Source of the DNA: Octopus vulgaris
Taxonomy: Eukaryota
NCBI GenBank assembly: GCA_951406725.2
Contig: OX597833.1
Coordinates: forward strand, 20,398,001-20,462,000
Length of the DNA: 64,000 nucleotides
Direction: 5' to 3'
Under the pieces are notes generated by a model, which was not told the DNA's origin, did not search any database, and saw only the letters and a list, made by a program, of their open reading frames with translations. Within the stretch, counting starts at the first letter, position 1; every line of letters begins with the position of its first letter. The position numbers and the translations under genes were made by a program. This document shows, piece after piece, positions 41,701 to 44,700 of the stretch.

Positions 41701-44700
41701 TATTTTCTCCTCCTTTAGCTTGTTTAGTCTTGTCTACATTGTCAATTCTTTTTCTCATTTCCACTACCTTCTCTGCCTCCGTCCACTATTACCAAGTGTG
41801 TTTCAGACCTCTACAGTCCACTTTATCTCTGTACCCACCACACTGTCCAGTATATTATTGTCCAACATAGTTCCAAATATCCCTGCTCTGTACTGTCTAT
41901 TCTGTTTCTGCTGTAGATGGATTCACAAGATGCTGAAATTCAAACTCATGATGAAACCTAACATAGCACCCACCAATTATACAGTGATTTATTTTCGCAG
42001 TTCACGGATTCCCATGACTCGTTATCCAGTTCCATTACTATGCACTTGAAGTGGTAGCTTGAGTCACAGCGAATCTTTCATTAGATGGTTGTACAACCAT
42101 GGACGCCGCCCCTATAGATGTATTGCAATTACTCTCTTGATAAGATCTTGGCGATTCTGACTGTTGATCTTCTAGGATTCCTTCACACAGAATCAATGTA
42201 AGAAGCACGATTGGCTCAGTTGAGCTCTACTGCCACCTCTTCAAAATCCGTCATGCTGCAGTCCAATGACTTCGCTGTATCCTTGGCAGGGTGACTGAAC
42301 GGGTGTTATACCTTGCCAAAGGGCAATCCGTAACCATGCACAGCACGGTCGTCACATCGTGCGGTATTTTCAAAATAACAGCATACCCAAAATACCCGAA
42401 TATAGTGATACTTCTACCAAATTTCGCCTTATCTAAGATCAGTTTGACACTTCAATGACTCAGTTGACTACTGATTATCTGAGGGAGGCATTTAGCTTAA
42501 GTAAGGAAGACCAAAGTGGTATTAACATACACGAAGTAGTCTTCACTGGGAGTTATGGTTTTGTTCAGTATGATATCGGTTTCTGTTGATGAATTCATAT
42601 TTTCGCCGCTGTTTAGTAACGTTTCATTACCTGTGAATGATAATAAAAAAAGAAATAATAATAATAATAATAATAATAATAATAATAATAATAATAATAA
42701 TGATGATGATGATGATGATGATGATGATGATGATGATGATGATGATGGTAATAGTAATAGTAATAATAGTAATAGTAGTAGTAGTAGTACTACTACTACT
42801 ACTACTACTACTACTACTACTACTACTACTACTACTACTACTACTACTACTACTACTACTACTACTACTAATAATAATAATAATGATAATAATAATAATA
42901 ATGGATTTACCAAAGAAATAAACATGAAATTCGGCTTAGAAAAATGTGCCAAAGCAAATTTGAAAAGAAGAAAACTAGTTAAGAGTAACAACATCACACT
43001 AGGTACAGAAATAAGAGAATTGGACCAAAGCCAGGCATACTTAGGAATCAATGAACTAGACACGATACAACACACACAAATGAAAGAATACTGTAGACGA
43101 ATCAGATTAATACTGAAAACAGATCTCAGTACGAGAAACAAAATAAGAGGTATCAACACTCTAGCTATCCCAGTTATAAGTTACAGGTACAATATTCTTA
43201 ACTGGACTGTAAGTGAACTAATCAAAAACAGACAGGAAACAAGAAAAATAATGGCTGGATTTAGGATGCATCACGCAAAATCTGACATAGAAATGTTATA
43301 TTCAACCTATAGAAGGTAACAGAGGCCTTATACAGCTAAAAACTATTACAAAATAATCACCCAACCACCACAGGTCTACAGAAATACCTACTTCAGAAGC
43401 AAGGAAAACAAATACAAATAGCCACAAAACACGAACAAAACAAAAAAAACTGGATTCAGTTTTGAAGGAAGCTAACAAATACAAAAAGAAATCATATGAA
43501 GAAAATATGATGAAAAAGAAGAAACAACAAAAGCTGTAAAACAACTGAAAGCCAAACCAAAACTGGAACAGCAAGGGATCATGATAAAACGATAGCAAGA
43601 AAAGTCCTTTCATGGCAAATACTTAGTTAAACTAAACAGAAAAGAAATAGACAAAGCAAAATCCCAGCAATGGCTGAGAAGGTCAGGACTCAAAGCAGAG
43701 ACTGAAGGATTTTAACTGCAGCACAAGAAAAAAGCCTCCCCACCAGAAATTACCAAAAACATGTAATGAAAAGAAATACAAGTAACTGCAGTTACTTGTA
43801 TTTCTTTGGTAAATCCATTATTATTATTATTATTATTATTATTATTATTATTATTATTATTATTATTATTATTATTATTATTTCTTTTTTTATTATCATT
43901 CACAGGTAATGAAACGTTACTAAACAGCGGCGAAAATATGAATTCAACGGAAACCGATATCATACTGAACAAAACCATAACTCCCAGCGAAGACTACTTC
44001 GTGTACGTTAATACCACTTTGGTCTTCCTTACTTAAGCTAATAAATCATTGTCTCTGACTGCCCAGTCCTGGCTAAGAAGGAATATATTCACAGACACGA
44101 CAAAGTTGGGACCTATATAAACTGGAAGCTATGCCAACACTATGGAATAACAACAGAAAAAAGATAGTATAAGTATACGCCAGAAAAGATCACAGAAAAT
44201 GAGAAAGCAACCATACTCTGGGCTATGCCAATACAGAGAGAGAGAGAGAGAGAGAGAGAGAGAGAGAGAGAGAGAGAGAGAGAGAGAGAGAGAGAGAGAG
44301 AGAGAGAAATTAAAGCCAATAGGCCGAATATAGTTGTCAGAGATCACCAAGAAAAAAGTTGCTTTGTAATCGATGTATCAATACCAACAAATGATAATGT
44401 GTTTCTAAAAGAAACGGAGAAACTTTCAAAATACAAAAACCTAGAAATAGAGGTAACTCGAAAGTGGAGTCTATCATCGTTGGCGCATTAGGTATGATAA
44501 AACAATATTCAGACAAATACATAACAAAAAGACCAGGACTAACGAGTATGTATAACATACAGAAAATAGCACTACTAGGCACCGCACGCCATAAAAATAA
44601 GAAAATAAACCACAGCACGTACCCAAGGCACACAGAGCTGTACTCGGTAGTGCAGTGAAAGCACATGATAAAAAAAAGACTACTGAATAATAATAATAAT

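Follow-up and report, generated by a model that had tools for sequence, protein, structure and literature searches.

The 64,000-nt stretch of Octopus vulgaris DNA analysed here (the window; contig OX597833.1, positions 20,398,001 to 20,462,000) carries on its minus strand a gene of the SLC6/SNF neurotransmitter-transporter family, as indicated by a PF00209 match above the cut-off and by in-frame exons that match a full-length orthologue. Twelve in-frame exons matched the O. bimaculoides protein P0002 at approximately 83-100% (tblastn; alignment portions inside each exon). The orthologues are named glycine transporter 2 or glycine transporter 2-like at NCBI. Exon 4 (42531..42630, minus strand, 100 nt) was placed by tblastn with P0002 and the O. 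sinensis model P0003, by spliced junctions in RNA contigs, and by translation, Pfam giving nothing relevant for this exon alone. It encodes part of extracellular loop 2 (EL2) with the sequons NET, NSS, and NKT, all three of which are also present in P0002. On one side lies exon 3 (45736..45897, minus strand), which carries the PF00209 match and whose donor is used in both probable RNA runs (X3 and X18), and on the other exon 5 (37705..37837, minus strand), whose reading frame is lost when exon 4 is skipped. The exon 3 donor (45736-45729, minus strand) is of an atypical GTTAAGT type, presumably recognized through shifted U1 pairing. At the start of exon 5 (37836), run X3 shows C>A (His to Asn, the O. 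bimaculoides state) and X18 agrees with the window; this difference is not of the A-to-I type. The O. sinensis models P0001 and P0003 are both truncated and situated on a 38.7-kb contig, and one of them ends one residue past exon 3. Intron 3 of the window contains no acceptor accounting for this end, and the two weak acceptor candidates for it both lie in intron 4.

Intron 3, which is upstream of exon 4 in the pre-mRNA, contains an inverted copy of exon 4 at 43799..44041 (plus strand, 243 nt; exon part 43906-44002), the 5′ arm of a predicted pre-mRNA duplex. Because of this upstream position, the copy is transcribed before exon 4. Its template (42492..42920, minus strand) comprises, according to the alignment, 39 nt of intron 4, the donor, exon 4, the acceptor, the pyrimidine tract, a compound microsatellite (AAT/GAT/AGT/ACT/AAT, 42652..42903), and 18 nt of junction sequence at the truncated 5′ end of a retroelement. 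An earlier note, made from the letters of the window, had described 43799-44041 as the reverse complement of exon 4 with its splice sites and flanks, born by inverted exon duplication, and the alignment bears this out. The exon 4 region has only two matches in genome G000, namely the exon and the copy, and the exon-versus-flank match (E = 7e-42) is not due to chance. The repeat finder resolved it into two abutting inverted arm pairs, 42492-42589/43944-44041 (97%) and 42590-42720/43816-43946 (95%). Copy and template differ by three substitutions in 160 unique nt, located at 42527 (intron position +4), 42545, and 42584, by a 3-nt gap in the copy at 42587-42589, and by one further difference within the AAT tract; the microsatellite is reduced in the copy to approximately 70 nt of (ATT)n, 183 nt having been skipped. 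Since P0003 has the exon 4 peptide of the window without the gap, the 3-nt loss in the copy is derived. Neither exonic substitution (42545 and 42584) alters the protein (chance of about 0.11-0.25), and the gap keeps the reading frame, which hints weakly at a working allele as the source of the copy. Between 42546 and 42583, the arms share an identical stretch of 38 nt. A crossover within this stretch would flip the 1.1-kb loop and leave a working exon with an in-frame 3-nt loss and the sequon kept.

The copy is inserted inside a 5′-truncated and decayed non-LTR retrotransposon (42904..44685, plus strand), recognized from its translations and from its copies in G000, which provides the 1.1-kb spacer, that is, the loop of the predicted fold, as well as the right flank. 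The element retains the end of a reverse transcriptase, followed by a CCHC knuckle and an RLE-type motif, and an (AAT)n tail, tails of the latter kind being present in the three retroelement copies examined. Together with its dispersed copies, these features match those of an R4/Dong-like element, a putative clade assignment made from motifs and from PMC4640811. The likeness to R4/Dong-like RLE non-LTR elements described there extends to the association with microsatellites; unlike typical members, the element of the window is truncated and decayed. Three fragments of the element had no relevant Pfam match. The family is of high copy number in G000, with 3550 first-look candidates, and the best other copy among the 40 scored was 92% identical. 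No clean alignment with the element copy L003 was obtained for the 18 nt at the junction, whose putative origin from the element is assigned by reading frame. A short 3′ remnant of a similar RLE-type element was observed at ~54240-54400 (plus strand), after an (AAT)n tract and upstream of the gene.

The whole insert measures 248 bp (43792..44039) and replaces 23-24 bp of the retroelement, which occupy the insert site in all five of the other element copies examined. Its left junction is formed by a perfect 38-nt fold-back palindrome (43770..43807), seeded by a native 6-nt palindrome, the last 9 nt of which constitute a microhomology to 42912-42920. In total, the junctions display microhomologies of 3, 9, and 2 nt, with a 2-nt overlap at the right junction. 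The earlier note overlooked the location in the retroelement, the replacement of 23-24 bp, the palindrome, and the junction microhomologies. An inverted copy of nearby sequence, microhomology, several switches, and a loss of 23-24 bp are the features looked for in FoSTeS/MMBIR-type events, and all of them were found. MMBIR has been described with microhomologies of 2-5 bp and a mixture of inverted and deleted segments (PMC2621351), and copying of the reverse complement through a template switch has likewise been described (PMC8794818), both as far as the available text of these sources goes. The copy likely arose when DNA synthesis, in replication or repair, switched templates in several steps, with replication restart and polymerase theta end joining leaving marks that would be indistinguishable in the sequence of the insert. 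Synthesis would have proceeded along the element, folded back on a 3-nt self-match to generate the 38-nt palindrome, and jumped approximately 0.9 kb to the 5′ junction of the element, where 9 nt match. From there it would have run along the opposite strand across the microsatellite and exon 4 before returning through the 2-nt match with the loss of 23-24 bp. The splice sites are included in the copy because contiguous DNA was copied from an anchor approximately 290 nt from exon 4, and selection is not needed to explain them. With 3 substitutions in 160 unique nt, the copy has diverged far less from its template than the element has from the rest of its family (92% for the best of the 40 scored) and is thus younger than the element. 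Three other origins were ruled out: one within retrotransposition itself, as the element is far more diverged than the copy; a retroposed exon copy, as intron flanks are included; and a dispersed repeat, as there are only two matches in G000.

When the host gene was searched for similar arrangements, 91 inverted pairs were obtained, only one of which touches an exon, and none of the 11 other exons had an inverted match of at least 30 nt within 5 kb. Likewise, none of 120 exon-like pieces in 55 other SLC6 stretches, 99 of which had at least 1.5 kb on both sides, had an inverted match of at least 30 nt nearby. Overall, 0 of 131 SLC6 exon pieces sets an upper 95% bound of 2.3% for this SLC6 sample, which is not a random one. 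Other repeats were recorded in the course of these searches. The introns of the window contain long self-complementary MITE-like palindromes (80-95%) at 26274-26649, 36711-36967, 25907-26114, 25462-25609, and 50225-50323, which are further candidates for intronic dsRNA. In stretch L043, positions 4866-5048 and 5206-5386 hold tandem SLC6 exon-like duplicates, 75% identical and approximately 160 nt apart, possibly mutually exclusive exons, while stretch L008 (4797-5063 and 7572-7627) repeats part of another SLC6 exon as a 56-nt direct copy with 100% identity at a distance of 2.5 kb, possibly a second recent templated insertion.

At the RNA level, the intron is predicted to supply what an editing-complementary sequence (ECS) must provide, a pairing partner for the exon within one pre-mRNA molecule. 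The stem appeared in both the MFE and centroid folds of 1500 nt, and the duplex of the unique arms was predicted at -269 kcal/mol versus -22 and -25 for the self-folds. The long, nearly uninterrupted duplex proposed earlier is thus supported by the models, with 205 predicted pairs for the full arms and with the donor, the acceptor, and the pyrimidine tract all within the stem. The pair classes agree with those first described, the substitutions giving two G.U wobbles and one A.C mismatch in addition to the 3-nt gap. By alignment, the pair also exceeds the threshold used for ADAR-modulated exon-intron duplexes in the available part of PMC5991522 (more than 70% identity, E of at most 0.001), with 95% and 7e-42. 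It is not the short imperfect duplex that selects a recoding site: there are 205 predicted pairs, and editing of the lone A.C site (42584) gives ACA>ACG, which is silent. Among the 42 adenosines of exon 4, 32 are non-synonymous if edited, and translation confirmed that A-to-G edits could remove the sequons NET, NSS, and NKT, as had been proposed. The predicted consequence of skipping also held, as the loss of exon 4 causes a frameshift with a stop after 20 codons. The substitutions showed no excess of pair-keeping changes, two of three being the chance expectation from transitions. Since the splice sites and the pyrimidine tract lie in the stem, an edited transcript would have to unwind before exon 4 could be included. 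The atypical exon 3 donor on the copy-bearing intron, if weak, could lengthen the time for pairing.

Contigs of 4 runs out of 24 were aligned to 42201-42650, namely X18 and X3, guessed to be RNA, and X6 and X5, probably DNA. Run X18 provided one 2230-nt contig (depth 16.9) across exons 3, 4, and 5, and run X3, from another study, provided one contig joining exons 3 and 4 (depth 19.3), one joining exons 4 and 5 (53.3), and an unspliced one that crosses the donor (4.1). Both junctions of exon 4 were confirmed exactly by these contigs, and no other letters, i.e., no A-to-G changes, were present in exon 4 in either run, in contigs that drop minority variants. The unspliced X3 contig showed no T>C over 42492-42560, which covers 69 nt of the duplex region. 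As these contigs are spliced and unchanged, the prevailing assembled product includes exon 4, and at no site are the majority of molecules edited; the contigs represent majority alleles only, from animals that may not carry the copy and tissues that may not be neural, and skipped or hyper-edited RNA may be degraded or unassembled. Thus, of the earlier interpretation as a whole, the duplication, the predicted duplex, the removable sequons, and the frameshift stand, and the role as an ECS or skipping switch has so far found no support, with exon 4 included and unaltered in the majority-allele contigs of both probable RNA runs and the A.C site synonymous.

The probable DNA runs X6 (organism B) and X5 (organism C) each yielded one contig through exon 4, carrying the alleles of the copy at 42584 and 42587 and those of the exon at 42527 and 42545. 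No piece with the junction at 42492 was present among the listed X5 and X6 contigs, and the junction occurred in no listed contig of any run. The depth of the X6 contig (58.6, versus ~49-70 for most other pieces) fits one copy or two, and the 31-mers 18 nt beyond the right junction are already shared with other copies of the element. Three readings of the mixed alleles were considered. The copy may be present, the assembler having retained the path of the copy at one bubble and lost the junction, or an exchange between the arms may have occurred in 42546-42583, which would produce the same 31-mers; we favour one or the other of these over the third, in which 42584 and 42587 are true exon alleles and the two animals may or may not carry the copy. 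Under either favoured reading, copy-type sequence exists outside this assembly. At other sites, X5 differs from the window at 2 of ~447 positions and X6 at 0 of 395, which is less than the copy differs from the exon, a weak hint (P 0.05-0.12) that the copy may be older than the X5 and X6 lineages.

Taking these data together, the copy is probably an accidental by-product that is tolerated at the price of minor editing and leak, and not an editing element under selection. Being transcribed first, it could pair with exon 4 as the latter emerges (predicted 205 bp). Most transcripts would escape, with splice-site recognition winning the race before the loop closes and an included, unedited exon as the outcome, and a minority would pair, gain scattered, non-selective A-to-I edits, and skip exon 4 into the frameshift, the skipped mRNA then being removed by nonsense-mediated decay. 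The net effect would be a modest loss of mRNA and low-level, non-selective editing. The duplex probably forms sometimes, since inverted Alu pairs spaced this far apart undergo editing in vivo, the more so when close and similar (PMC526178, available portion). In the available portions of two further sources, octopus editing is mostly intronic or in 3′UTRs, with splice sites very rarely altered (PMC9699675), and 78% of ubiquitous editing sites in squid are edited at less than 2% (PMC9068888); the accessible supplement text of the former mentions neither 'glycine transporter' nor 'SLC6'. Against this explanation, a large loss may be hidden, because skipped or hyper-edited RNA is degraded or unassembled, and the copy-type alleles under two organism labels suggest a long persistence that selection could explain as well.

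Another reading is a mildly harmful, dosage-lowering variant, in which the duplex traps a large share of the transcripts into skipping and decay, lowers the amount of transporter, and belongs to an insert that may be polymorphic. Skipped transcripts with a stop after 20 codons would not be visible in steady-state contigs, and the missing 42492-junction piece in X5 and X6 fits an absence of the copy in some animals, 42584 and 42587 then being true exon alleles. However, given how assemblers treat paths that run into repeated sequence, the shared element 31-mers 18 nt past the right junction could have led to the junction path being dropped, and the few other differences in X5 (2/~447) and X6 (0/395) hint weakly (P 0.05-0.12) that the copy predates the lineages; we regard this variant as rather unlikely. 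Unlikely, too, is a functional ECS or splice switch kept by selection, whose duplex would form efficiently in neurons, where ADAR would recode the EL2 glycosylation sites or edit the acceptor. The predicted stability of the duplex (-269 versus -22 and -25 kcal/mol, with the stem in the MFE and centroid folds), the copy-type alleles seen in DNA from two studies, each with its own organism label, and the finding, in the part of PMC5991522 available, that 33 human exons paired with a neighbouring intron were mostly repressed by ADAR1, 73% gaining inclusion on knockdown, are consistent with such a function. The neural type of 91% of robust coleoid recoding, as given in the available text of PMC9068888, could also reconcile it with runs of unspecified tissue, but exon 4 shows no other letters in the contigs of either RNA run, the A.C site is silent, the splice sites and pyrimidine tract are buried in the stem, and pair-keeping changes (2/3) are not in excess.

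The fully normal splicing in the X18 and X3 contigs would also agree with an absence of any RNA-level effect, if the nascent RNA were coated by proteins and exon 4 committed before the 1.1-kb loop closes. It has been argued that pre-mRNA folds for the most part locally, at ~50 nt behind the polymerase (PMC2077896, partial text), although long-range inverted repeats are edited in vivo (PMC526178, available portion) and the exon 4 pair is longer-paired than most; we consider this reading unlikely. An assembly artefact would account for a junction found in none of the contigs listed; nevertheless, the arms differ at three sites and a gap, the junctions bear microhomology and a 23-24 bp loss, and two copy-type differences recur in both independent DNA runs, which makes an artefact extremely improbable. 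A bolder proposal, which we find distinctly unlikely, is that one template-switch accident built a full duplex for editing and splicing control over a conserved exon, kept in more than one octopus lineage for neuron-specific partial editing of glycosylation sites or decay-coupled skipping, i.e., an editing structure caught at birth. On this proposal, recombination between the arms may also invert the loop and carry alleles of the copy into the functional exon.

The locus bears on how coleoids gain new edited exons. Editing levels in coleoids are believed to be adjusted gradually as cis changes alter the dsRNA (PMC8382921, partial text), and the locus offers a one-step alternative with a datable origin. 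It provides a clean natural test of the origin of editing structures, with built-in controls in the neighbouring exons, in relatives, and possibly in non-carriers. Heavy editing would point to the instant birth of an editing structure, and a lack of editing would indicate that splicing is able to finish ahead of a 205-bp duplex that spans the two splice sites. A mapping trap should be considered here, as reads from the copy mapped to exon 4 mimic an A-to-G site at 42584.

The literature covered, which included few subscription papers, describes neither this locus nor any editing element formed by an inverted copy of an exon. When compared to known systems, the locus resembles the ECS of the GRIA2 Q/R type in having an intronic sequence complementary to a coding exon and predicted dsRNA in a neural-type pre-mRNA. 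In contrast to that system, approximately 205 near-perfect pairs are predicted here, spanning the exon from end to end together with its two splice sites; editing at the favoured mismatch would be silent, and the partner arose recently as a DNA copy of exon 4. Alu exons with an inverted intronic Alu and exon-intron duplexes repressed by ADAR1 (PMC526178 and PMC5991522, available portions) share with it an extended duplex that spans an exon together with the splice signals, its arms about 1 kb apart, and their scattered editing and reduced inclusion would, by analogy, be the expected outcome for exon 4. Unlike Alu exons, exon 4 is conserved, non-repetitive, and coding, its partner is its own copy, and the retroelement serves only as landing site and loop. 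In its structure, the insert is comparable to FoSTeS/MMBIR insertions and to the birth of hairpins by template switching (PMC2621351 and PMC8794818, partial text), with several switches, microhomologies of 2-9 nt, an inverted local template, a small deletion, and a stem ready in one event. Those systems concern disease rearrangements and RNA-gene hairpins, and the words 'exon' and 'editing' are absent from the available part of PMC8794818. In build, the locus is a template-switch insertion; in its predicted action, it is closest to inverted repeats that form a duplex across an exon.
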